Positions 4,977 through 44,936 of a stretch of DNA of 64,000 nucleotides are shown here, piece after piece. Numbering within the stretch: the first letter of the stretch is position 1; each line of letters opens with the position of its first letter. The stretch covers positions 1,766 through 65,765 of the forward strand of contig JBIIIW010000001.1 in NCBI GenBank assembly GCA_044234345.1, written 5' to 3'. The notes under the pieces were generated by a model. That model had not been told where the DNA came from and ran no database searches. It saw only the letters and a program-made list of their open reading frames with translations. The stretch comes from Minisyncoccia bacterium. GTDB lineage: Bacteria > Patescibacteriota > Minisyncoccia > Phycocordibacterales > PALSA-1337. Position numbers and translations under genes: made by a program.

Positions 4977-6077
4977 ATGATTATCGCGAACATTCCGTTA
5001 GGTATACAACTCGGTGTGATGCTGTTATGCAGTGTAGCTGGTCTCTGGATATTCCACTATTGTGTGATTAGAGTGATCTTACAAGGAGGTCGTCCGCAAA
5101 ATGGTCCGCCAGAGAGTAGGGAAGAGAAATCAACAGAGGTTGCTTCAAAAACTTCGAAGATCCTGCTCGATGAGTTGAAGACAAGCCTGGTTAAGACTCT
5201 AAGAAAGCGTGACCGGGAAAGTCAATGTGATTCAGCGTTCTGGGCATCTTTTTCGCTTGTTGGAGAAAGCGAAGAGTTTGGTGTCGTGGTCTTAAGGGTA
5301 GACACTAACAACTATGGTTATCAAATAAGAACAGGTAACTTTAAAGATTCGAACGCTTGGGAAAATCTGGTAATAGCGACCCGAAAAGGATACTGCTTCC
5401 TTGGAAGAGTGAACCTCTACAAGGGTGCTGTGTATAACGGGCCGTTTCAGATTACAAAATCCGAAAGTGGATCAATTGTAGTTAGCTGGGGACAAGCTTC
5501 GTTCACTATTAAGGACGAGGAGATGAGAGGTGGTTATGATTTTCCATTCGAATTACCTCCGCGTTCTGAGATGGTAAGAACTGTCTACAACCTTAATGGT
5601 GCTATTGTCGTAATCGATGATGATCCAGGCCAAGGTCGGTATGTTCAGTTTTCGGTAGATCAAATGGGTAAGCGACTGAAAGCAGATCGCACAGTCTGGG
5701 ATTTACCGGGTTGCGTTAGGTGTGTCAAAGATGCAATTCAATATTTACCAGATTGTAGTGGTCGTCGTGAACAGGTTAGACTAGTCCTCGTTGACGGCAA
5801 CTTTAGCGGGGATGGAAGAGGTTTCAATACCGGTAGACTCATTCCTGTATTGCGCGAACGATACCCCAATGCACTCCTTTTCGCGAATAGTGGAATGGCT
5901 GAGAATCATACTAACCATACTCCCGAACTATTGGCAGCTGGTTGTGACTGTGCGCTCTCGATCGAAGATTATGGTTATAAGTCAAATCTGACTAAAATCC
6001 TAGCAAGAGTAGCCGAGCTCAAGCCGGAGATTCTTGTGAGTGAGGAACTTGACTTGAATGAAGTTCTAAAAATCTGA
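4977..6077 (+). CDS. hypothetical membrane-anchored protein (GC-rich cassette gene 2)
   Basis: 366 aa with an N-terminal TM helix (IPLGIQLGVMLLCSVAGLWIF). C-terminal region VLVDGNFSGDGRGFNTGRLIP...LLAAGCDCALSIEDYG is of unknown fold. Good RBS and terminator. Confidence 0.6.
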   Translation: MIIANIPLGIQLGVMLLCSVAGLWIFHYCVIRVILQGGRPQNGPPESREEKSTEVASKTSKILLDELKTSLVKTLRKRDRESQCDSAFWASFSLVGESEEFGVVVLRVDTNNYGYQIRTGNFKDSNAWENLVIATRKGYCFLGRVNLYKGAVYNGPFQITKSESGSIVVSWGQASFTIKDEEMRGGYDFPFELPPRSEMVRTVYNLNGAIVVIDDDPGQGRYVQFSVDQMGKRLKADRTVWDLPGCVRCVKDAIQYLPDCSGRREQVRLVLVDGNFSGDGRGFNTGRLIPVLRERYPNALLFANSGMAENHTNHTPELLAAGCDCALSIEDYGYKSNLTKILARVAELKPEILVSEELDLNEVLKI

Positions 6078-35232: not shown

Positions 35233-35255
35233 AGCGGCCGTGTGCAACGGCCGCT
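35233..35255 (-). terminator. intrinsic terminator after the zinc-ribbon gene
   Basis: agcggccgtgtgcaacggccgct with a U-run on the minus strand. Confidence 0.65.
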
Positions 35256-35270
35256 AATGCGTGGACAGCA

Positions 35271-35552
35271 TTATTTCTTTACTGTTGGTTCATCCACAAT
35301 AAAACTCATTCCACTTAGATTCCAGTTTAATTTACATTTAGGACAGTGGTTTGCGTGGTGGAAATAATATCCACCAGGACGGTGTTCATCACGTTTACGA
35401 ACATCGATGGTCTTAGTCCAGAAATTGTTACATTTAGGACAGCGTCCACACATGAGTGAGATAAAAAACCTAATCATGATGAAGACAGCGACAGCCGTGA
35501 AAACAATGATAGTTAATGTGGGGACCATATCTGTTAGAGTGTTCTCTCCCAA
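35271..35552 (-). CDS. small membrane protein with C-terminal zinc-ribbon
   Basis: 93 aa with a TM helix (LTIIVFTAVAVFIMIRFFISL) and CGRCPKC...HCPKC. Confidence 0.45.
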   Translation of the reverse strand: MGENTLTDMVPTLTIIVFTAVAVFIMIRFFISLMCGRCPKCNNFWTKTIDVRKRDEHRPGGYYFHHANHCPKCKLNWNLSGMSFIVDEPTVKK

Positions 35553-35608
35553 CCCTGAAGGAGGTGTTTGTTTAGGGTTACTTTTAAAAGTATACTACAT
35601 CTTATGAG

Positions 35609-37399
35609 CTATGTCAACACTGCCTTTATCCTCCTCACTCCTTGAGAACTAGCTTCCTCCTTCTGTATCTTAAATACTCCAAGCTCTGAAGTATTCTTAA
35701 CATGTGGACCTCCACAGAATTCTTTAGAGTATGCAGTTTCTAGGGAATTACCGATAAAGTATATTGATACTTCATCTCCATACTTCTCTCCGAAGAAATG
35801 TCTTGCTCCAGTCTTAAGAGCTTCTTCTTTCGGAAGAACTACATTCTGCATTGGCAATGCTTGCTTGATCTTCTCATTAACTATATCCTCTACCTTCTTC
35901 TTTTCTTCATCCGTCATCTTCTTGTTGTACGAGAAATCAAATCTTAATCTCTCAGCCGTTATATTAGATCCCTTCTGCCCTACTCCTTCCCCAAGTACAT
36001 CATGTAGTGCCTGGTGTAGTAGGTGGGTCGCTGTATGGTACTTAATCACCATAGGATTAGTATCATCTGCTAGTCCTCCTTTAAACTTCTGTTCTGCTCC
36101 GGATCTAGATAGTTCTTGATGCTTCTTGAACTCCTCATTGTATTTTTCAATATCAACTGTAATACCCTTCTCTTTCGATAGTTCAAGTGTTAACTCTATA
36201 GGAAAACCATAACTTGAGAACAGGGTAAATGCATCTGTACCTTTATCGAATTCCTTAAGCCCCTTCTCAAGTGTCTTTCTAAACTTCTCCTCCTCCTGAT
36301 TAATCTCATTTCTAATATATTCAAGTTTGTCTTGTATGATTGGATATGAGTCCTTGTATGTATTTGCAAAGATATTAACTAAATCCTTTAGTGTATTCTC
36401 TTGTACCCCTAACCTATTAGCATTAACTATAGCTCGTCTCAATAGTCTTCGTAGTATGTATCCTCTATCAGTATTAGATGGAGTAACTCCGTCTGTGATC
36501 AGGAATACAGATGCACGAATATGATCAGCAACAATTCTTGCGGACTTTAGATCAAAGTTCTTAGATACAGAAGATATCTTCTCCATTACTGGTTTGAATA
36601 GGTCGGTATCATATATATTGTCTACTCCTTGTAGAGTCATAGTAAGTCTCTCCAATCCAGCACCTGTATCTACTGAAGGTTTAGGTAAGGTACCGACTAT
36701 AGCTCCATCCTTCTTCTCATATTGCATGAATACATCATTCCATACCTCAACAACAGTTCTCTCATCATCTGCCTTAACATATTCTTCATGAGTTAGTCCT
36801 CTGCCTCCAAATGTATTTGATATATCGTAGAACATCTCCGTATCTGGTCCACAAGGTCCATTGTCTCCAGCCTCCCACCAGTTATTCTTCGCAGGGAGGT
36901 AGTATAGTCTGTTACCTTCAATACCATTTCTCTTGAATATATCCTTCCAGATGTTCGCAGCTTCTTCATCACGAGGAGCTATGCTATCTCCTTCAAATAC
37001 AGTTACATATAGTCTGTTAGGATCAAGTCCTAATCCTTCTTCTTTGTTTGTTAAGAATTCAAAACTCCATTCTATAGCGTCTTTTTTGAAATAGTCACCA
37101 AGAGACCAGTTACCAAGCATTTCAAAGAATGTAGCATGTGTCTTGTCTCCAATATCATCTATATCAACAGTACGAAGACATTTCTGTGTATCAACTAATC
37201 TAGTTCCGTTTGGATGAGTCTTACCAAGTAGGTATGGCACTAGAGGTTGCATACCTGCAGTATTAAAAAGTGTTGAATTAGTTATTCCCTTCTCATCTGT
37301 TGTTACAAGAGATGCTGAAGGTATGACAACATGCCCTCTCTTCTCGAAGAATTTAAGGAATCTAGATCTTATATCGCTACTTGTTAACTTTGGGTTCAT
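35609..37399 (-). CDS. alaS: alanyl-tRNA synthetase, truncated form without the C-Ala domain
   Basis: The N-terminal catalytic domain (FLKFFEKRGHVVIPSASLV...FFEMLGNWSLGDYFK) and the editing domain HxxxH/CxxxH (HTATHLLHQALHDVLG, CGGPHV) are present. Only 596 aa. Confidence 0.9.
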   Translation of the reverse strand: MNPKLTSSDIRSRFLKFFEKRGHVVIPSASLVTTDEKGITNSTLFNTAGMQPLVPYLLGKTHPNGTRLVDTQKCLRTVDIDDIGDKTHATFFEMLGNWSLGDYFKKDAIEWSFEFLTNKEEGLGLDPNRLYVTVFEGDSIAPRDEEAANIWKDIFKRNGIEGNRLYYLPAKNNWWEAGDNGPCGPDTEMFYDISNTFGGRGLTHEEYVKADDERTVVEVWNDVFMQYEKKDGAIVGTLPKPSVDTGAGLERLTMTLQGVDNIYDTDLFKPVMEKISSVSKNFDLKSARIVADHIRASVFLITDGVTPSNTDRGYILRRLLRRAIVNANRLGVQENTLKDLVNIFANTYKDSYPIIQDKLEYIRNEINQEEEKFRKTLEKGLKEFDKGTDAFTLFSSYGFPIELTLELSKEKGITVDIEKYNEEFKKHQELSRSGAEQKFKGGLADDTNPMVIKYHTATHLLHQALHDVLGEGVGQKGSNITAERLRFDFSYNKKMTDEEKKKVEDIVNEKIKQALPMQNVVLPKEEALKTGARHFFGEKYGDEVSIYFIGNSLETAYSKEFCGGPHVKNTSELGVFKIQKEEASSQGVRRIKAVLT

Positions 37400-37450
37400 G
37401 GAAAGAGTTTAGCATAAAATTAGGGGAAAATGAAAATACATTGCGTCAAC

Positions 37451-39241
37451 CTACTTCTTCTTACTAACCAACCTCTCTAGCATATCTACATCCTTTTTAA
37501 TTTCCCCTAATCCCTCACTAAAGAAATTCTTGTCTGTAACATCAATTCCGATACTCTTGTATATATTCTCTGGCGTATCACTACCTCCTGCCTTAAGAAA
37601 CTTTTCAATTGAAGCTATAAAGCTCTTGTCTTCCTTGTATCTCTTAAGCATAACCTTACTAACCAGCATTCCGTATGCATAAGTGTATACATAAAAGAAT
37701 CTTCTAATATGACCCCATTGAACGAAGAAATATCCATCATCCTCTTCCATCTTGAATACTGGACCGAGGTATGCACTCATATTCTTGTTATGAAGATTGG
37801 CTAATTCCTCTTTTGTAACTAGTCCCTTGTTACGTACAACACTATGTATATCAGATTCAAAGTTAAAACATGCTATCTGTCTAAAGATTGTTTGCATTTC
37901 ATCATCTATCTTGTCATGTAAAGCTACAATCTTGTCGCTATCACTTAGAGTCTCAGCGAATGTATCGAATGCTAAACTTTCAAAAAATGTACTCGCGGTC
38001 TCGGCAGTAGTTGTGGAGTATTGGCAATATACTGGACCAGCTTTCTTTGATAGTTCTGTATGGAATGCATGTCCCATCTCATGAGCTAGTGTTGAATATG
38101 AGTTAAGATCATTAATATGATTTAGTAATACAAGTGTAGGGTTCTCGTATGTGCCCCAGCAATACGCTCCTCCGTGCTTACCTTTCTGTGGAGCTACGTC
38201 TATTTGACCGTTATTAACATACTGACTCAACATATCAGCATATTTAGTATCGAACGTATTAAGTGTTGTATTTAGTCTCTTAATCGATTCTTTATATGCA
38301 AAGTCCCCCTTAATCTTCTTGTATGATACAGCTCTATCTGAGTAGTTTAGCTTCTTAAGCTTTAGTAGCTTTGCTTTAATCTTAAAAAACTTATGTGCAA
38401 CTGGAAAATACTTTGTCACACTAGAGACTAGATTTTCTACAACTAGAGGATCATTCCTATACCCTAATATTGTTGCTAGTTGTGGAGTATCAAATCCTCT
38501 TAGTTCATCATCAATCTTTTTGTTGATATATACAGCATTGATTTCTGCTTCTGAGAAGAATGCAATACTTTTAAGTTCAGCATTCACTAATTTAGATAGC
38601 TTAACTCTTTCTGATTTGTTTAGATTCTTAATTAAATTACTAGCCTCTTGTAAAGGAAGCTTCTTACCCTTCCAGTCTACTGTTAATCCTGATATCGCCT
38701 TGTCATGACTATCGTTCCAAAAGTCTGATGACGGTATTCTCTTGAGATTAATGATCTTCTCTTCAGCTTCTGATAGAAGATACTTGGCATCGTCAAAAGT
38801 ACATTTAAGGAAGAAGGTATAGTATGCAAGGTCAGGATCTGATAGCAGCTGTTGTTGAATATCACCACTAATCACTCCAAGCTTGATTGTAAAGAATGTA
38901 ATATTGTTTATACACTTCGTTGTTCTGCTATTGTAAAGGTTTAGCATTGACTGAGCCTTCTCATTCGAAGAATTTTTATGAGTTAAAAAAGTCAGATATG
39001 TTACTGGCTTGGATGGTAGCTTGCCTATAATTAGGAAATAGTCTTCGAGAGATTGTTTAAGTGCTGTTTTGTTGTTCTCAAGAGATTGACTATGGTAATT
39101 GGTATAGAAATCTAGACAAAGTCTCTCCAACTGCTCCATATCAGTCTCTATTCTAGGATCATTTATTGATTTATAGAACAAACTAAAATTCCATTCGGTA
39201 TTAATCTTGTTGTTTTTCATAGTATTTACTCTATCCCACAA
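37451..39241 (-). CDS. pepF: oligoendopeptidase F (M3B family)
   Basis: HEMGHAFH zinc motif and M3B architecture. 596 aa. Confidence 0.85.
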   Translation of the reverse strand: MWDRVNTMKNNKINTEWNFSLFYKSINDPRIETDMEQLERLCLDFYTNYHSQSLENNKTALKQSLEDYFLIIGKLPSKPVTYLTFLTHKNSSNEKAQSMLNLYNSRTTKCINNITFFTIKLGVISGDIQQQLLSDPDLAYYTFFLKCTFDDAKYLLSEAEEKIINLKRIPSSDFWNDSHDKAISGLTVDWKGKKLPLQEASNLIKNLNKSERVKLSKLVNAELKSIAFFSEAEINAVYINKKIDDELRGFDTPQLATILGYRNDPLVVENLVSSVTKYFPVAHKFFKIKAKLLKLKKLNYSDRAVSYKKIKGDFAYKESIKRLNTTLNTFDTKYADMLSQYVNNGQIDVAPQKGKHGGAYCWGTYENPTLVLLNHINDLNSYSTLAHEMGHAFHTELSKKAGPVYCQYSTTTAETASTFFESLAFDTFAETLSDSDKIVALHDKIDDEMQTIFRQIACFNFESDIHSVVRNKGLVTKEELANLHNKNMSAYLGPVFKMEEDDGYFFVQWGHIRRFFYVYTYAYGMLVSKVMLKRYKEDKSFIASIEKFLKAGGSDTPENIYKSIGIDVTDKNFFSEGLGEIKKDVDMLERLVSKKK

Positions 39242-40068
39242 ACCTCCTTAATCTCGGCTATAACCTCCTCTTTCTCTGGAGACTTCATACCAATCTCGTC
39301 TAACACACTCTGATTATTATATATCTCCATACAAAGCACAACACCCTTCTTTAATAGCTCCTTTTTGAATGTATTAGATATAGATACAAGACAAGTAAAA
39401 GGATGTAGATGTAGTTCTTCGATAATGTCCTGTAAGTTACCCTTTGCTGGATAGTTCCATCCCAACATCTTAACTCCATTACACTCTCCGTACTTAATTG
39501 CTTGTTCTGTAAACTTTGTATTAGTAATGAGCCAACCTTCTGTTAGTTTCCTCTGTATCCCTCCATAGTCGAACATATTACCCTTAAGGTCATCGAAACG
39601 AGCTTTGATGTACAGTACAACCTTAAGATCTGACTTCATATCAAGTTCATTATGGAACTTAGCTTCCACCATAACTAACTTGCTATCATTCCATGCTACG
39701 ATATCTACCTCATGAGGAACACATACACCAAGAACACTCTGATCAGTTAATGTCTGATATCCTCTAGCTTCAAACATCTTTGCAATATACTTCTCGAAAG
39801 GAAAACCATCTGGACCAAGTTCAGAGAGAGCTCTGCGAAGCGAATACTTTACAGCAACTGGTAGAGAATGACTTCTAAGTAGCTTAAATGCTCTAGAATA
39901 TATCTCACTAGTTGGCATACCGTCATACATCTCCTTACTTATATGGCCCAGTATTTCTTCTATAACCTCTTCACTACCTCCGGAGTTCTTTAGAGAATCA
40001 ATTAATTTATGTTCTTCGAATAATTCCTTTGTACCATCAGCCTTTGTAATTTGTATTAAGTGATTCAT
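39226..40068 (-). CDS. ATP-cone domain protein fused to an Mrr-like (PD-(D/E)xK) restriction-endonuclease domain
   Basis: The N-terminus (LIQITKADGTKELFEEHKLIDSLKNSG) is an ATP-cone. The C-terminus (VDIVAWNDSKLVMVEAKFHN) is a PD-D/ExK core. The chosen start ATG 40068..40066 overlaps the mnmA stop TGA (40067..40065) as ATGA. Confidence 0.7.
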   Translation of the reverse strand: MNHLIQITKADGTKELFEEHKLIDSLKNSGGSEEVIEEILGHISKEMYDGMPTSEIYSRAFKLLRSHSLPVAVKYSLRRALSELGPDGFPFEKYIAKMFEARGYQTLTDQSVLGVCVPHEVDIVAWNDSKLVMVEAKFHNELDMKSDLKVVLYIKARFDDLKGNMFDYGGIQRKLTEGWLITNTKFTEQAIKYGECNGVKMLGWNYPAKGNLQDIIEELHLHPFTCLVSISNTFKKELLKKGVVLCMEIYNNQSVLDEIGMKSPEKEEVIAEIKEVCGIE

Positions 40069-41114
40069 GCGGATATTATAGCACCACCTAAACATATATT
40101 TCCATCGTACATAACCAGAGACTGCCCTACAGATATATTGTCTTGTACGTTAGTAAACTTAACTGTATTACTGTCTACAAACTCTATCTCCTGTAGTGGT
40201 GCTCTGTATCTAGTACGAGCTAGTATCTTTCTTCCAATAGCTGGTACGCCCTGATTCCAGTTAACGTCCTTCACTTGTATAGTAGTTATTCCATTAGGTA
40301 ACTCACCCTCCAATCCCTTGTTAGCAACAGTTATTGTATTCTTCTCTATATCTTTGGATATTACATAATACGGCTCATCATTAGGAGTCTTCTTGATAAT
40401 ATCAAACCCATGTCTTTCACCTATGGTATAGAAAAAGGAACCATCGTGTGTACCAATTACATTTCCTTGTATATCAAGTACACCTCCTTTGTCTGGAGTA
40501 ATATAGTGAGACAAAAATTCTTTAATATCTATCTTACCTATGAAGCATAGTCCTTGGCTATCCTTCTTTAAAGCATTTGGTAAATCAAATTTCTTTGCTA
40601 ATTTACGTACCTCAGGCTTCTCGATGTTCCCAACCGGGAACAATGTCTTACTCAATTGTTCTTTATTAAGTGTCCAGAGAAAATATGTCTGATCTTTGTT
40701 CTTGTCTTCTCCTGCAACTAACTTTCCATCAATCACTTGCGCATAGTGTCCTGTAGCAACATAGTCAGCACCGTTCTTCATAGCATAGTTATAGAAACCA
40801 CCAAACTTTACATACCTATTACACATCACATCTGGATTAGGTGTTCTTCCGAGTTTATACTCACTAATCATATAGTCTACTACCTCCTCCTTGTATTCTT
40901 TCTCAAGATCTAGAGTTATAAAGGGTATATCAAGCTTAGCAGCTACTCTCATAGCATCTAACCTATCCTCTTTCCACGTACAGTTAATCCAGTCAGGTTG
41001 CCATACTTTAATGAATACACCAGTTACATCATAACCAGCTTTCTTAAGTAGTGCTGCGGATACAGAGCTATCTACTCCACCCGACATCCCTATATATACT
41101 TTCTTAGACTTCAT
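40065..41114 (-). CDS. mnmA: tRNA-specific 2-thiouridylase
   Basis: VYIGMSGGVDSSVSAALLKKAGYDVTGVFIKVW, a PP-loop, and overall MnmA architecture. Confidence 0.9.
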   Translation of the reverse strand: MKSKKVYIGMSGGVDSSVSAALLKKAGYDVTGVFIKVWQPDWINCTWKEDRLDAMRVAAKLDIPFITLDLEKEYKEEVVDYMISEYKLGRTPNPDVMCNRYVKFGGFYNYAMKNGADYVATGHYAQVIDGKLVAGEDKNKDQTYFLWTLNKEQLSKTLFPVGNIEKPEVRKLAKKFDLPNALKKDSQGLCFIGKIDIKEFLSHYITPDKGGVLDIQGNVIGTHDGSFFYTIGERHGFDIIKKTPNDEPYYVISKDIEKNTITVANKGLEGELPNGITTIQVKDVNWNQGVPAIGRKILARTRYRAPLQEIEFVDSNTVKFTNVQDNISVGQSLVMYDGNICLGGAIISA

Positions 41115-41140
41115 ATTTCGAGTATATGTTAAGTTAATAA

Positions 41141-42091
41141 CTATTTCAAATATCTATTTATGTTATTCAAATGAGTGTCATATGTAATTGCATATCTCAT
41201 TAGTCCATCTTTACCAGTTAGGTAGTAATAGTAGTCAGTCTTAATGTAGTTAATTGTATCCTCTATCGCAGCTATACCAGGATTTGATATTGGTCCCTTT
41301 GGTAATCCTTTATATAGGTAAGTATTATAAGGAGACTTAATAGCTAGATCTTGCTTTGTGAAGTTGCCTGGCTTACCAGTTAGGTAATAGAAAGGAGCAT
41401 CAACTTGAAGTAGCATTCCACGATCAAGTCTCTTCCATAATATTCCAGCAATGATCTTCCGATCCTCACTGTTATTAGCTTCCTTCTCCACTATGGCTGC
41501 CATATTAACAATATCCTTTAGACTCCTATTAGACTTACTCAAGTTAATCTTACTTATCTTCTCTTCAAAGTTCTCTCTCATAACCTTAATTATCTCCTCA
41601 GGTTTTGTATTAGCTAAAAAGATATATGTATCTGGATATAGATATCCTTCATATTGTATTGCTAATGATACAAACCTTGCTGCATTAAAGTCATTTAATT
41701 TCTTTAGGAGAATATATGCAATATCGTAGGTATTTGTACCTTCAGGTATTGTGATAGTTACACTTGGTTGCCTCTGTTCCCCATTAATCATTCTTCTTGC
41801 AATACCTATTGTATTTGTAGGCTCGCTGAATCTATAGTCTCCAACTTTAACTCCTTTGTTACCTGACAGTACTATAGCTATAAACTTAAATACTGATTTA
41901 CTTGATATCATATTCTTCTCGTACAGTGATTCTGCTACCTTGATTATCGAATCTCCGCTGTCTATATGGAAATCAAACTGTTGTTTAGGAAAATCCTTTG
42001 GTGGTGTAGATGAGTACCCTATAACAAGTAGGAGAATAGCGAAAATGATAAATGCTAATTTTAGTATTCTTGTATATTTGAAGTATTTCAT
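41141..42091 (-). CDS. mltG: endolytic murein transglycosylase MltG (YceG-like)
   Basis: N-terminal TM helix and the YceG hallmark GYLYPDTYIF. Confidence 0.85.
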   Translation of the reverse strand: MKYFKYTRILKLAFIIFAILLLVIGYSSTPPKDFPKQQFDFHIDSGDSIIKVAESLYEKNMISSKSVFKFIAIVLSGNKGVKVGDYRFSEPTNTIGIARRMINGEQRQPSVTITIPEGTNTYDIAYILLKKLNDFNAARFVSLAIQYEGYLYPDTYIFLANTKPEEIIKVMRENFEEKISKINLSKSNRSLKDIVNMAAIVEKEANNSEDRKIIAGILWKRLDRGMLLQVDAPFYYLTGKPGNFTKQDLAIKSPYNTYLYKGLPKGPISNPGIAAIEDTINYIKTDYYYYLTGKDGLMRYAITYDTHLNNINRYLK

Positions 42092-43359
42092 TATATAGGT
42101 AGATTTGCAGGAGCCTGTGACTTCTTAGAAGGTATACGATTAAGGTTAGGTGTTGATGCAACTGCACCTGGGAAGTGATATAGAGTTGCTAATTCCTCTG
42201 TGCTTAATACAAGCGGTGTACCTGTAAAAGGCTCATAGAAGAATGATCTTCTCTTGTATGCCTCAAGTACAAGTCTACACTGCTTGTTCTCTCTGTACTT
42301 CTTGTAGTCCTCCCAAGGTAGTCCTGAGAACTTAGCTGAGTACTTGTCTCCATTCTGTTTGATTCCGTTAAAGTTCTCACTTGAGAAGTGCTTGAATGCA
42401 GAAAGTATACCTCCCACACCATTTGGTTTGTCGAATACATCCTTCTTACCAATGTACACAGCCCTGATACCAACATCAAAAGCTAGTTTACCCATATTCC
42501 TCTCAACTGCCTTTATGAGTTCCTTCTCTCCATCAGTTAGAGTTGGAGGTATGACTCTTCCAGTCTCCTTGTCCTTCTTACCAACAATTCTAGTCTTAGC
42601 ATCACGCACCATAAGTTTGTTAACAAACTCTTGAGCTTGGTCCTTGTACGCATCAGTTTTCTTCCATAGATGACCAGGTTTGGCTTGTTCCGCAGTGTGA
42701 GCTCTAATCATGAACTGAAACCATACTTGTTGATTAGGACCGACACTTCCAAGAAACTCAATCATGGGAGTCATAGGATCAACTTTGAATTCCTCCTTAG
42801 GATCCTTATCAAGTCCATAATCAACGTATGTCTTTATCGGCAATACATCATTCTTCTGTGTAAACTTAAAGTCTGCACCCCATAGCTTACTTTCTTTAGG
42901 ATCGAAGTGTATACCATGAGTGTAGTCTGGTGCCTCATGTACTTCAATACCTGGGAACTGAGAATATAGCGCTGCCATAACTCCATTCTTTCTTCTGTCT
43001 TCTGTGCGAATGAAGAACTTAACTACACCCTCAACTGATACTAGTTCGAGAGAGTATGTTGGTCTTTTTTCCCCTTTCCAGAATTGGGCAAAGTTACTAC
43101 CATCTGAAGTATTGTGTAATGCGTTCAATACTAATTCCATAGAGAGTGGAGATTTCAGCATCTCTTTAGGAAGTTTAATTTCCAAAAGAGTGTACTTCAT
43201 ATTGGCTATGAAGTCTGATCTAACATAGTTGACCCATAGAGGCCAAAAAAGAACGTAAAGGATTATAGCTAAGAAAATTGGAGATATAGCTATTAGTATT
43301 TGGATGGTATTTGGTAACATTTCACCAAATAGCATTGATTGAAGTTCAACGGGAATCAT
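42091..43359 (-). CDS. hypothetical membrane protein (422 aa)
   Basis: N-terminal TM helices (IQILIAISPIFLAIILYVLFWPLWV) and a large soluble domain of unknown function. Confidence 0.55.
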   Translation of the reverse strand: MIPVELQSMLFGEMLPNTIQILIAISPIFLAIILYVLFWPLWVNYVRSDFIANMKYTLLEIKLPKEMLKSPLSMELVLNALHNTSDGSNFAQFWKGEKRPTYSLELVSVEGVVKFFIRTEDRRKNGVMAALYSQFPGIEVHEAPDYTHGIHFDPKESKLWGADFKFTQKNDVLPIKTYVDYGLDKDPKEEFKVDPMTPMIEFLGSVGPNQQVWFQFMIRAHTAEQAKPGHLWKKTDAYKDQAQEFVNKLMVRDAKTRIVGKKDKETGRVIPPTLTDGEKELIKAVERNMGKLAFDVGIRAVYIGKKDVFDKPNGVGGILSAFKHFSSENFNGIKQNGDKYSAKFSGLPWEDYKKYRENKQCRLVLEAYKRRSFFYEPFTGTPLVLSTEELATLYHFPGAVASTPNLNRIPSKKSQAPANLPI

Positions 43360-43616
43360 ACCTAAATATTATACCATAGAGAATATGGTTTAAACAAAAA
43401 TAGCCCAACATTTTGTAGTCGGGCCCTGATCTCGCCTCTGGAGATCAGTAGGTGTAACCGTCTATGCTGAATGATATCTTAATAATATCTTATCATAGTG
43501 ATGCCAATGCGGTGGAGGTATACGTGTCACTTGACAGTCTAAGTTGCTTCATGTTTAATGGATGACAGACACTACCTGTCATGTCTGCAAAATAACCTAA
43601 ATTAAATGATTCGGCT

Positions 43617-43889: not shown

Positions 43890-44936
43890 CTACGCCACTA
43901 CCTTAGAATCAGCTGGAGAATACTTACCATCCTTGTTCTTCTTGAAATGCTTCTGGTTCTGGATATTAACCATAATAGTGTTTTCCTTTACATATCTCTC
44001 CTTCATTACCTTTTCGATAATCTCATCTTTAGATAGAGGACCATGCTTCTCTAGTATGCTCTTTATAACATCCTTAACTACTCCTGACATATATCCCCAT
44101 TCACGTAGAGCGTATAGACCACGTCCTACAAGTACAAATCTCTTGTCTTTAATTAGTTCGTTATGAGTTGTTGCGATATGAGCCTTCTTCTTGAATATTG
44201 TAGTAATCTGCTTAGCAACCTCTTTGAAGTGTATAGGTGAACCATGCTTACGGATAACTAGGAATGCATAGTCTCTCATACCCTTTGTCTTGATATTTGA
44301 AGAATGAGATACTCCCCATTCACCCATAGCATTTTTACCAATCATCTTAGAAAGTGATAGCCAACGCTTAACAATCTCCTGATTCTTGTATTTCTCAGAA
44401 ACTTGCTCTAGATGTGACAGGAACTTGTTAACAATCTCTGATTCAACTAGTAGATCGTCATCTGAAAGTTCTCCATATAGCTTTTTTAGAGAGTCTTCAA
44501 CTTGTTTTGAAAGCTCTTCGTTTACATGCCATCTGTGCTTGAATTCATCATCCTCCTTTCTCTTCTTGAATACATCACCAATTACTAGTATGAAGTGTAT
44601 ATGATTCTGTAGTTCTAGATCCTTTGATGCATGTCCAAGGAAATCATCTTCAACAACAATTCCACCAAGAGAGTGTATTAGAGTCTCAAGTTCAGCAAAT
44701 GCAGCCTTCTCAGCCTTATATGCATCTGACTTACGGATATTAGCTAGAGCATAGTTCTCTATCTGACGTACTCTTTCACGAGTAATTCCATATAGTTTAC
44801 CTATAGCATCTAGAGTCATTTTCTCTGTACTCTTGCCTAGACCGTATCTTTTGACAAGGACTTCACGAGCACGATCAGGTAGCACTGAAAGCAGCTTCTT
44901 TGATGTTTGTTTTGGTTTGAATTGGATGTTTGCCAT
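43890..44936 (-). CDS. sigma-70 region-4 HTH domain protein with C-terminal HARE-HTH-like domain
   Basis: The N-terminus (LPDRAREVLVKRYGL...TLDAIGKLYGITRERVRQIENYALANIR) matches sigma70_r4. The C-terminus (HFKEVAKQI...DKRFVLVGRGLYALREWGY) matches the HARE-HTH signature found in the RNAP delta subunit. Confidence 0.6.
   Translation of the reverse strand: MANIQFKPKQTSKKLLSVLPDRAREVLVKRYGLGKSTEKMTLDAIGKLYGITRERVRQIENYALANIRKSDAYKAEKAAFAELETLIHSLGGIVVEDDFLGHASKDLELQNHIHFILVIGDVFKKRKEDDEFKHRWHVNEELSKQVEDSLKKLYGELSDDDLLVESEIVNKFLSHLEQVSEKYKNQEIVKRWLSLSKMIGKNAMGEWGVSHSSNIKTKGMRDYAFLVIRKHGSPIHFKEVAKQITTIFKKKAHIATTHNELIKDKRFVLVGRGLYALREWGYMSGVVKDVIKSILEKHGPLSKDEIIEKVMKERYVKENTIMVNIQNQKHFKKNKDGKYSPADSKVVA

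Follow-up and report, generated by a model that had tools for sequence, protein, structure and literature searches.

A nuclease gene whose start codon overlaps the stop codon of mnmA, and whose product begins with an ATP-cone, raises the question of whether the encoded enzyme serves defense, tRNA modification or some other need of the cell. The locus lies in the 64,000-nucleotide stretch of DNA that was analyzed, here called the window. A first-pass annotation of the window favored a defense or stress nuclease controlled by ATP or dATP, with nucleic-acid turnover tied to tRNA modification as its alternative. As described below, its reading of the gene and of two domains holds, and the evidence on function points instead to a housekeeping role.

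Gene structure and domains of the 280-residue protein

The span singled out previously, 39226-41114, consists of the nuclease gene and mnmA, both on the minus strand. The features relevant to the argument are as follows.

35233..43425, minus strand: probable transcription unit DUF8128 - mltG/yceG - mnmA - nuclease - pepF - alaS, inferred from a consensus scan
39226..40068, minus strand: nuclease gene, encoding a 280-aa ATP-cone / PD-(D/E)xK / HhH-like protein of the AF1548 family
39226-39228, minus strand: stop codon (TAA) of the nuclease gene
39241..39402, minus strand: C-terminal helical domain (AF1548-like_C), helix-hairpin-helix-like, residues 223-276
39466..39807, minus strand: PD-(D/E)xK (Mrr_cat) nuclease core, residues 88-201
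39658..39705, minus strand: catalytic triad from alignments, D122 (39703-39705), E135 (39664-39666) and K137 (39658-39660)
39826..40056, minus strand: ATP-cone domain, residues 5-81
40065..40068, minus strand: ATGA overlap of the mnmA stop and the nuclease gene start
40065..41114, minus strand: mnmA, tRNA 2-thiouridylase, 349 aa, upstream neighbor of the nuclease gene (Pfam)

The open reading frame is real and the overlap can be read directly in the window, where the plus strand carries tcat at 40065-40068 and the minus-strand ATG (40068..40066) shares bases with the TGA (40067..40065). The ORF listing also offers a longer alternative of 289 aa, starting from 40095, but the 280-aa product is the correct one because MNHL is the start of all homologues. 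The mnmA product matches tRNA_Me_trans (E 1.8e-74), together with the M and C domains, in Pfam.

Both domains first proposed for the protein score above the curated Pfam cut-offs, with 29.0 bits against 25.8 for the ATP-cone (PF03477, residues 5-81; up to 35.6 bits in homologues) and 30.6 bits against 21 for Mrr_cat (PF04471, residues 88-201). The N-terminal domain has the four-helix architecture of a cone, complete with a beta-hairpin lid, and can be superposed on cones of known structure. The first-pass annotation missed a third, C-terminal domain, to which Pfam gives a sub-threshold AF1548-like_C match at residues 223-276, as well as an existing crystal structure (PDB 1Y88). An NCBIfam search returned YraN-type models at chance level only and no NrdR match. 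Conserved cysteines occur at C116, C196, C226 and C246.

The catalytic residues suspected earlier from a 'D..EAK' motif (D122 and E135-A136-K137) are present, and D122, E135 and K137 do not vary among 48 aligned sequences of 32-47% identity or among 12 archaeal ones. They correspond to the triad predicted for AF1548 (PMC1821046), and E92, H119 and E120 are conserved at 90% or more at the same 32-47% identity. Within the ATP-cone, K9, F17 and K21 are also conserved at 90% or more, and E15 does not vary in alignments A1, A2 and A5 and is the consensus residue in A3. In alignment A3, the most diverse, conservation was too low in every block to support a locus scan, and A4 was used for that purpose.

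Residues K9, E15, F17, K21 and L22 align with K53, E59, F61, K65 and L66 of E. coli NrdR, and the counterparts of the NrdR nucleotide-contact residues V51, K53, E59 and K65 (here I7, K9, E15 and K21) are conserved. The Arg of the usual K-R-D-G lid motif is replaced by Ala in the window protein (KADG), at a position that varies across the family, whereas members from Archaeoglobi keep KRDG. This replacement is not disqualifying for an ATP-cone, since E. coli NrdR presumably lacks the Arg as well, having K53-S54. The substitutions K50A, E56A and K62A in ScoNrdR, equivalent to NrdR K53, E59 and K65, weaken nucleotide binding (PMC12176259).

The union of an ATP-cone with a DNA-binding module is the design of NrdR itself (PMC9110341), and one family member is labelled 'NrdR family' by JGI. 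It is thus conceivable that the protein is a non-catalytic, nucleotide-sensing regulator in which the restriction-enzyme fold and helix-hairpin-helix tail only bind DNA, and ribonucleotide reductase (RNR) genes do lie downstream of the nuclease gene in 2 of 59 loci. However, inactivated restriction-enzyme folds normally lose residues such as D122, E135 and K137, invariant here, and E92, H119 and E120, nearly so. NrdR, moreover, reads NrdR boxes through an N-terminal four-Cys Zn-ribbon, of which Pfam detects no counterpart in the window protein, and its cone is C-terminal with the DNA-reading ribbon as output, whereas here the cone is N-terminal and the output would be an intact nuclease core. 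A purely regulatory protein is therefore highly improbable.

The AF1548 family

Judged by its sequence, the window protein is an ordinary member of the AF1548 family, joining a nuclease core to a domain of the ATP/dATP-sensing type. Its homology to AF1548 of Archaeoglobus fulgidus is full-length and includes the C-terminal domain (Mrr_cat plus AF1548-like_C), such that it represents a new member of a family that is already known but uncharacterized. The structure of AF1548, PDB 1Y88, is a structural genomics entry for a 'protein of unknown function'. In the crystallized chain the ATP-cone and the conserved GPxGFxFE helix are both missing, as the gene model began too far downstream; the full-length archaeal protein, of 265 aa, has an ATP-cone. 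That the only structure misses the regulatory domain is probably part of the reason why the family is still annotated in this way.

The literature searched on AF1548, and on ATP-cones together with nucleases (Mrr and restriction endonucleases included), yielded no study of the fusion, the sole exception being the GOS paper, in which AF1548 was predicted to be a restriction endonuclease. For the Saccharibacterium Southlakia, the supplementary Tn-seq table contains no orthologue, only a stand-alone ATP-cone protein and RNR.

The fusion of cone and nuclease is widespread in bacteria and archaea. The family comprises 1182 clusters at 50% identity, of which 445 are found at E<=1e-30, nearly all of them full-length at about 280 aa, and it is present in no fewer than 595 GTDB species genomes. 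Members occur in Patescibacteria, Balneolales, Archaeoglobi and DPANN archaea, and the carriers among Archaeoglobi and Balneolales include free-living organisms.

Gene context and rival functions

The genes from DUF8128 to alaS are tightly packed, and terminator-like hairpins, identified by consensus scan only, flank them at 43402-43425 and 35233-35255. In the window genome, the adjacency to mnmA would give co-transcription of the two genes within this probable unit, and their translation is probably coupled as well. An HMM of the window protein's own cone detected no second ATP-cone protein, such as NrdR or RNR, in the window.

This arrangement could reflect a nuclease tied to MnmA, acting for example on tRNAs with or without s2U34 or in tRNA turnover. 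Consistent with such a tie, in addition to the ATGA overlap in the window, mnmA lies upstream on the same strand in 71 of 80 Paceibacteria species loci (within 200 nt in 50), and the adjacency holds in most Paceibacteria down to about 45% identity. However, the ATGA overlap is found in only 2 of the 71 loci, and in 21 of them unrelated genes (PaaX_M, FKBP, GNAT, histidine kinase) are inserted between the two, with no recurrent partner such as MazF among the insertions. The YceG-mnmA and DUF8128-YceG pairs are as well conserved as mnmA-nuclease, which argues for synteny of the whole block. Nor does mnmA stand beside the nuclease gene in any locus read outside the Paceibacteria block (Balneolales, Archaeoglobi) or appear among the 25 commonest neighbor families on either side in 80 metagenome loci, and the helix-hairpin-helix tail suggests DNA rather than tRNA as the ligand. 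The mnmA adjacency is thus conserved synteny within one bacterial class and not evidence of a shared pathway, which makes a function built around MnmA very unlikely.

Beyond Paceibacteria, gene neighborhoods are heterogeneous and give no consistent functional pointer. The 80 metagenome loci contain 94 upstream and 69 downstream families, none found more than 5 times; the few genes of nucleotide metabolism among them are RNR, at 2 loci, and nucleoside/AMP phosphorylase-like genes, at 3. In Archaeoglobi, MscS or CorA is found upstream, the place taken by mnmA in the window. Ion and metal transporters (MscS, CorA, MgtC, Na/H exchanger, P-type ATPase) were considered as recurrent neighbors and found unsupported in the 80 metagenome loci.

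The reading originally favored for this gene was a defense or abortive-infection nuclease, triggered when phage infection upsets the ATP/dATP pool. A ligand sensor joined to a PD-(D/E)xK nuclease is indeed typical of the effectors Can2, Card1, Cdn1, NucC and Cap4, all of which are among the fold neighbors of the window protein. In addition, an N-terminal PemK/MazF toxin domain is fused to the protein in two close relatives, and at two loci genes of restriction type lie 2-3 kb from the nuclease gene (L089, MmeI/Type ISP-type; L090, RhuM and the HI_1054 helicase). Nevertheless, Can2, Card1 and Cdn1, which are CRISPR type III ancillary proteins, sense through a CARF domain, for which Pfam gives no match here; only the nuclease core aligns with Can2 and Card1, and the window gene has no CRISPR or CBASS context. 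The likeness to Mrr, the type IV methylation-dependent restriction enzyme on which Mrr_cat was founded, is similarly confined to the catalytic domain, with an ATP-cone in place of the Mrr_N winged-helix DNA-recognition domain (not detected by Pfam), and nothing points to a modification-dependent restriction role.

The manner of inheritance also argues against defense. PADLOC-DB 2.0 defense models gave only chance-level matches (E 0.02-0.03), no relatives were found in viral contigs (IMG/VR), and the GC content of the gene is normal, equal to that of neighboring genes. No recurrent partner, such as an immunity gene or methylase, was seen in the 80 metagenome loci. The nuclease is 72-78% identical to its relatives, compared with 70-76% for mnmA, 76-79% for alaS and 46-60% for YceG, and across 71 species conservation of the nuclease follows that of mnmA. 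The gene thus evolves as slowly as those for an aminoacyl-tRNA synthetase and a tRNA-modification enzyme, and it occupies a fixed place in a housekeeping block across the whole bacterial class (71 of 80 species). Its behavior is that of a housekeeping gene passed on vertically and not of a mobile defense gene, and a defense role is therefore quite improbable.

Alternatively, the enzyme might be a structure-specific nuclease of DNA repair or recombination, like Hjc or NucS/EndoMS, with the ATP-cone permitting cutting according to energy or dNTP status. However, its likeness to Hjc and NucS goes no further than the PD-(D/E)xK fold common to them, no element for recognizing junctions or mismatches was found in the protein, and the 80 metagenome loci show no consistent repair-gene neighborhood. 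We consider this role unlikely, if less so than defense.

A proposed link between nucleotide pools and nucleic-acid cleavage

We give about an even chance to the proposal that the protein is an adenine-nucleotide-gated housekeeping nuclease with a role in nucleic-acid turnover or salvage. It would be a cytoplasmic enzyme of three domains, in which the N-terminal ATP-cone may bind adenine nucleotides (ATP and dATP, possibly ADP), the PD-(D/E)xK endonuclease core, catalytically intact by its residues, would cut DNA or RNA, and the helix-hairpin-helix-like module would grip nucleic acid irrespective of its sequence. By analogy with all characterized ATP-cones (those of RNR and NrdR), nucleotide occupancy probably alters cone pairing and, through the oligomeric state, turns the nuclease on or off. 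The likeliest job of such an enzyme would be to couple DNA or RNA cleavage to the adenylate/dATP pool. Patescibacteria and DPANN archaea are often described as unable to make nucleotides de novo, and a salvage role would therefore suit them; this suggestion comes from the lineages in which the family occurs and from what is generally known of CPR and DPANN metabolism, not from the window genome, and the presence of the family in free-living Archaeoglobi and Balneolales counts against it.

Biochemical work on ATP-cones in the literature searched concerns only ribonucleotide reductases and NrdR. The family might hold the first ATP-cone-controlled enzyme beyond these, a housekeeping nuclease whose activity depends on the balance of ATP with dATP (or with ADP), a possibility that we put forward tentatively and as more doubtful than not. 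The links to defense and tRNA thiolation are not borne out for the window gene. Even so, a sensor joined to an intact nuclease, the abundance of the family and its retention in genomes of roughly 1 Mb at tRNA-synthetase-level conservation argue for an important, unrecognized function connecting nucleotide status to nucleic-acid cleavage. Because some hosts can be cultured (Archaeoglobus, Ferroglobus, Geoglobus, Fodinibius and Rhodohalobacter), the family is directly testable. If the proposal is true, nucleic-acid breakdown and the nucleotide pool would form a feedback loop in ultra-small symbionts of the Patescibacteria and DPANN, as well as in some free-living archaea and bacteria.

Gene pair, domains and conserved residues

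The span 39226-41114 contains two genes, mnmA and the nuclease gene, both on the minus strand and within a tightly packed run that extends from a DUF8128 gene to alaS.

Features in and around this run
35233-35255: terminator-like hairpin
35609-37399, minus strand: short alanyl-tRNA synthetase (596 aa) with catalytic and tRNA_SAD domains and no Pfam domain C-terminal to them
39226-40068, minus strand: nuclease gene; 280-aa product encoded from 40068 to 39229, stop codon 39226-39228
40065-41114, minus strand: mnmA; 349 aa with all three MnmA domains (Pfam; tRNA_Me_trans E 1.8e-74)
42091-43359, minus strand: 422-aa protein whose gene opens the DUF8128-YceG-mnmA block and is conserved in that position across Paceibacteria; no significant Pfam match in the window, homologues recorded as DUF8128 in precomputed annotations
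43402-43425: terminator-like hairpin
43890-44936, minus strand: 348-aa protein with Sigma70 region 4 and a HARE-HTH domain, highly conserved (66-86% identity) ahead of the block in many relatives and followed here by the 43402-43425 hairpin

The plus strand reads tcat at 40065-40068, and hence the ATG of the nuclease gene overlaps the TGA of mnmA as ATGA on the coding strand. The first-pass annotation had described this pair and its overlap, and both coordinates and plus-strand sequence bear it out in every particular. An alternative start at 40095, offered by a mechanical ORF list, was ruled out because every homologue begins MNHL..., which leaves the 280-aa product. Given the overlap and a sole Shine-Dalgarno-like motif (AGGTGG, 15 nt ahead of the ATG), termination-reinitiation is plausible in this genome, and the tight packing together with the two terminator-like hairpins suggests that DUF8128 to alaS may form one transcript. 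A promoter-like site (40075-40104, minus strand: TGGAAA, 18 nt, TATAAT, extended TG) also falls within the 3′ end of mnmA, with a -10 box ending 7 nt before the nuclease ATG, such that a leaderless transcript is possible; this site carries no statistical weight, since our scan returned fewer promoter sites than in shuffled sequence.

Modules of the protein in the AlphaFold model (mean pLDDT 82.6), with Pfam matches
Residues ~1-84: ATP-cone (residues 5-81, 29.0 bits, cut-off 25.8)
Residues 91-202: alpha/beta PD-(D/E)xK core (Mrr_cat, residues 88-201, 30.6 bits, cut-off 21)
Residues 212-277: helical tail (AF1548-like_C, residues 223-276, sub-threshold)

Thus the ATP-cone and Mrr-type nuclease proposed in the first-pass annotation both exceed their Pfam cut-offs, although a third domain had been overlooked; NCBIfam gave no match to the protein. 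Its fold neighbors include a series of nuclease cores: XisH (10.3), Upx, Can2 (10.1) and NucS (9.9), followed by AspBHI, VC1899, N.BspD6I, FokI, LlaBIII, Card1, NucC and Hjc, and Foldseek agrees with these neighbors. Across 48 aligned sequences (32-47% identity to the query), G85, F91, G114, R157, D160, N183, W204 and P223 are invariant, as are the predicted catalytic residues D122, E135 and K137, and E92, C116, H119, E120, T182 and C196 are at least 90% conserved. With catalytic-core positions invariant, the active site is strongly constrained by selection; this speaks against a fold that only binds DNA and makes a non-catalytic regulator less likely. Cysteines C116 and C196 are conserved, joined in CPR members by C226 and C246.

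In NrdR, ATP at the inner site is contacted by V51, K53 and E59 and dATP at the outer site by K65, and nucleotide binding is impaired when the equivalent Streptomyces coelicolor residues are mutated (PMC12176259). Local alignment with Escherichia coli NrdR, whose numbering fits twelve residues quoted in that paper, pairs K9/K53, E15/E59, F17/F61, K21/K65 and L22/L66. Within the family, K9, G12, F17 and K21 are at least 90% conserved, and E15 is the consensus residue. The Arg of the K-R-D-G motif is replaced by Ala in our protein, and this position varies across the family; Archaeoglobi members retain KRDG, and E. coli NrdR presumably also departs from the motif, with K53-S54 at the K-R position. 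Judged by these residues, the cone is likely to bind nucleotide.

The AF1548 family

A PDB sequence search returned a single strong natural match, 1Y88 (E 1.4e-33, residues 91-278), a structural-genomics entry for "hypothetical protein AF1548" of Archaeoglobus fulgidus. Public databases already list the ATP-cone/nuclease fusion, and a structure has been deposited for its catalytic part, which makes the window gene a new member of a family that is known but functionally uncharacterized. AF1548 was predicted from its structure to be a restriction endonuclease with a D/E/K triad (GOS paper, PMC1821046), and our literature searches found no later work on it. The 1Y88 chain begins ...VARLLEE, past both the cone and the conserved GPxGFxFE helix, and the four preceding residues, FQGH, look like an expression-tag remnant. 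A protein 99% identical to this chain (P0391; 265 aa, encoded at 5001-5798 of an A. fulgidus-like contig, L092) has ATP-cone, Mrr_cat and AF1548-like_C, and it retains the GPxGFxFE helix. By this comparison, 1Y88 derives from an N-terminally truncated gene model, such that the sole structure lacks the regulatory domain, and the three-domain layout is ancestral to the family.

With HMMER, a full scan of 1.84 billion representatives (clusters at 50% identity) recovered 1182 clusters at a threshold of E<=1e-3 and 445 at E<=1e-30, nearly all of 270-290 aa and aligned end to end. Among GTDB species genomes, relatives occur in at least 595. Patescibacteria of the Paceibacteria/Parcubacteria type (Nomura-, Taylor-, Zambryski- and Kaiserbacteria) account for nearly all of the best 80, which also include a Balneolales member, Halalkalibaculum. 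Additional searches found well-conserved members throughout Balneolaceae, archaeal members in Archaeoglobi, Geoglobus, Ferroglobus, Nanoarchaeota, Aenigmarchaeota, Korarchaeota and Bathyarchaeia, and one labeled Microgenomates. Members go by generic names in public records ("ATP cone domain-containing protein", "restriction endonuclease", "ATPase", "Holliday junction resolvase-like"). A second ATP-cone protein, fused to Glycoamylase (PF10091), is encoded two genes downstream of a family member in Halalkalibaculum sp. (L082, 5190-6719), and is another uncharacterized ATP-cone fusion.

Inheritance and gene neighborhoods

The first-pass annotation had raised a defense nuclease and, alternatively, a role linked to tRNA modification. 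Identity to three relatives is 72-78%, compared with 70-76% for mnmA, 76-79% for alaS, 53-61% for pepF and 46-60% for YceG at the same loci. Since identity tracks that of mnmA over 71 species, GC content (0.37) equals that of the neighbors, and neither PADLOC nor IMG/VR viral contigs yielded a match, the gene behaves like core genes that are inherited vertically and unlike the genes of a defense island. A defense role is thus less likely, despite slight support from restriction-type genes a few kb away in two Balneolales-like loci and from a PemK/MazF-like toxin domain (residues 29-126) ahead of the ATP-cone-nuclease in two close relatives (P0013, 444 aa, 81% identity; P0041, 447 aa, 77%), which are either fusions or merged gene calls.

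Of 80 species-representative loci, 71 have mnmA upstream in the same orientation; the remaining nine include several truncated contigs. The DUF8128-YceG-mnmA-nuclease block persists down to ~45% identity, with a variable downstream side (pepF, alaS). The mnmA-nuclease junction itself is not conserved: the genes overlap at 4 of the 71 loci (two as ATGA), and gaps measure 0-50 nt at 35, 51-200 nt at 11 and more than 200 nt at 21, the large ones being occupied by unrelated genes (PaaX_M, FKBP, GNAT, histidine kinase). Outside the Paceibacteria class, no mnmA neighbor was found in Balneolales, a metagenomic relative, A. fulgidus or Ferroglobus, nor among the 25 commonest neighbor families on either side in 80 metagenome loci. 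The adjacency to mnmA is thus a matter of block synteny confined to one class, and a tRNA-linked role is less likely.

Other neighbors are diverse. In Balneolales, a glutaredoxin-like gene (~110 aa; L082, 4846-5178; L089, 6855-7190) overlaps the nuclease 3′ end by 4 nt, which, with the conserved cysteines, hints at redox control; a beta-CASP RNase gene overlaps downstream in one metagenomic relative, and the upstream neighbor is an MscS channel in A. fulgidus and CorA in Ferroglobus. At several non-Paceibacteria loci (L092, L093, L090, L088, L052, L082), family members adjoin, and often overlap, genes for ion or metal transport (MscS, CorA, DUF389, Na/H exchanger-TrkA, AI-2E transporter, MgtC, P-type ATPase). 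As a dominant pattern, this was not borne out in the 80 metagenome loci, whose immediate neighbors span 94 Pfam families upstream and 69 downstream, each represented at most five times, with HypF (4-5 loci), nucleoside/AMP-phosphorylase-like (3), T2SSE (3), CsoR (3) and RNR (2) the most frequent.

Proposed function

From domains, residues, distribution and gene context, we infer that the protein is most likely an adenine-nucleotide-gated nuclease. The cone would bind ATP or dATP, and its occupancy would change cone pairing and hence oligomeric state, by analogy with RNR and NrdR; oligomeric state would in turn control the PD-(D/E)xK nuclease, which a non-specific HhH tail may hold on nucleic acid. 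To our knowledge, no ATP-cone has been studied experimentally outside RNR and NrdR. Repair or recombination is the main rival role. An adenine-nucleotide-gated nuclease would most likely serve nucleic-acid turnover or salvage coupled to the nucleotide pool, in a family that is large, conserved at the level of core genes, and represented in the PDB by an entry without the sensor domain.
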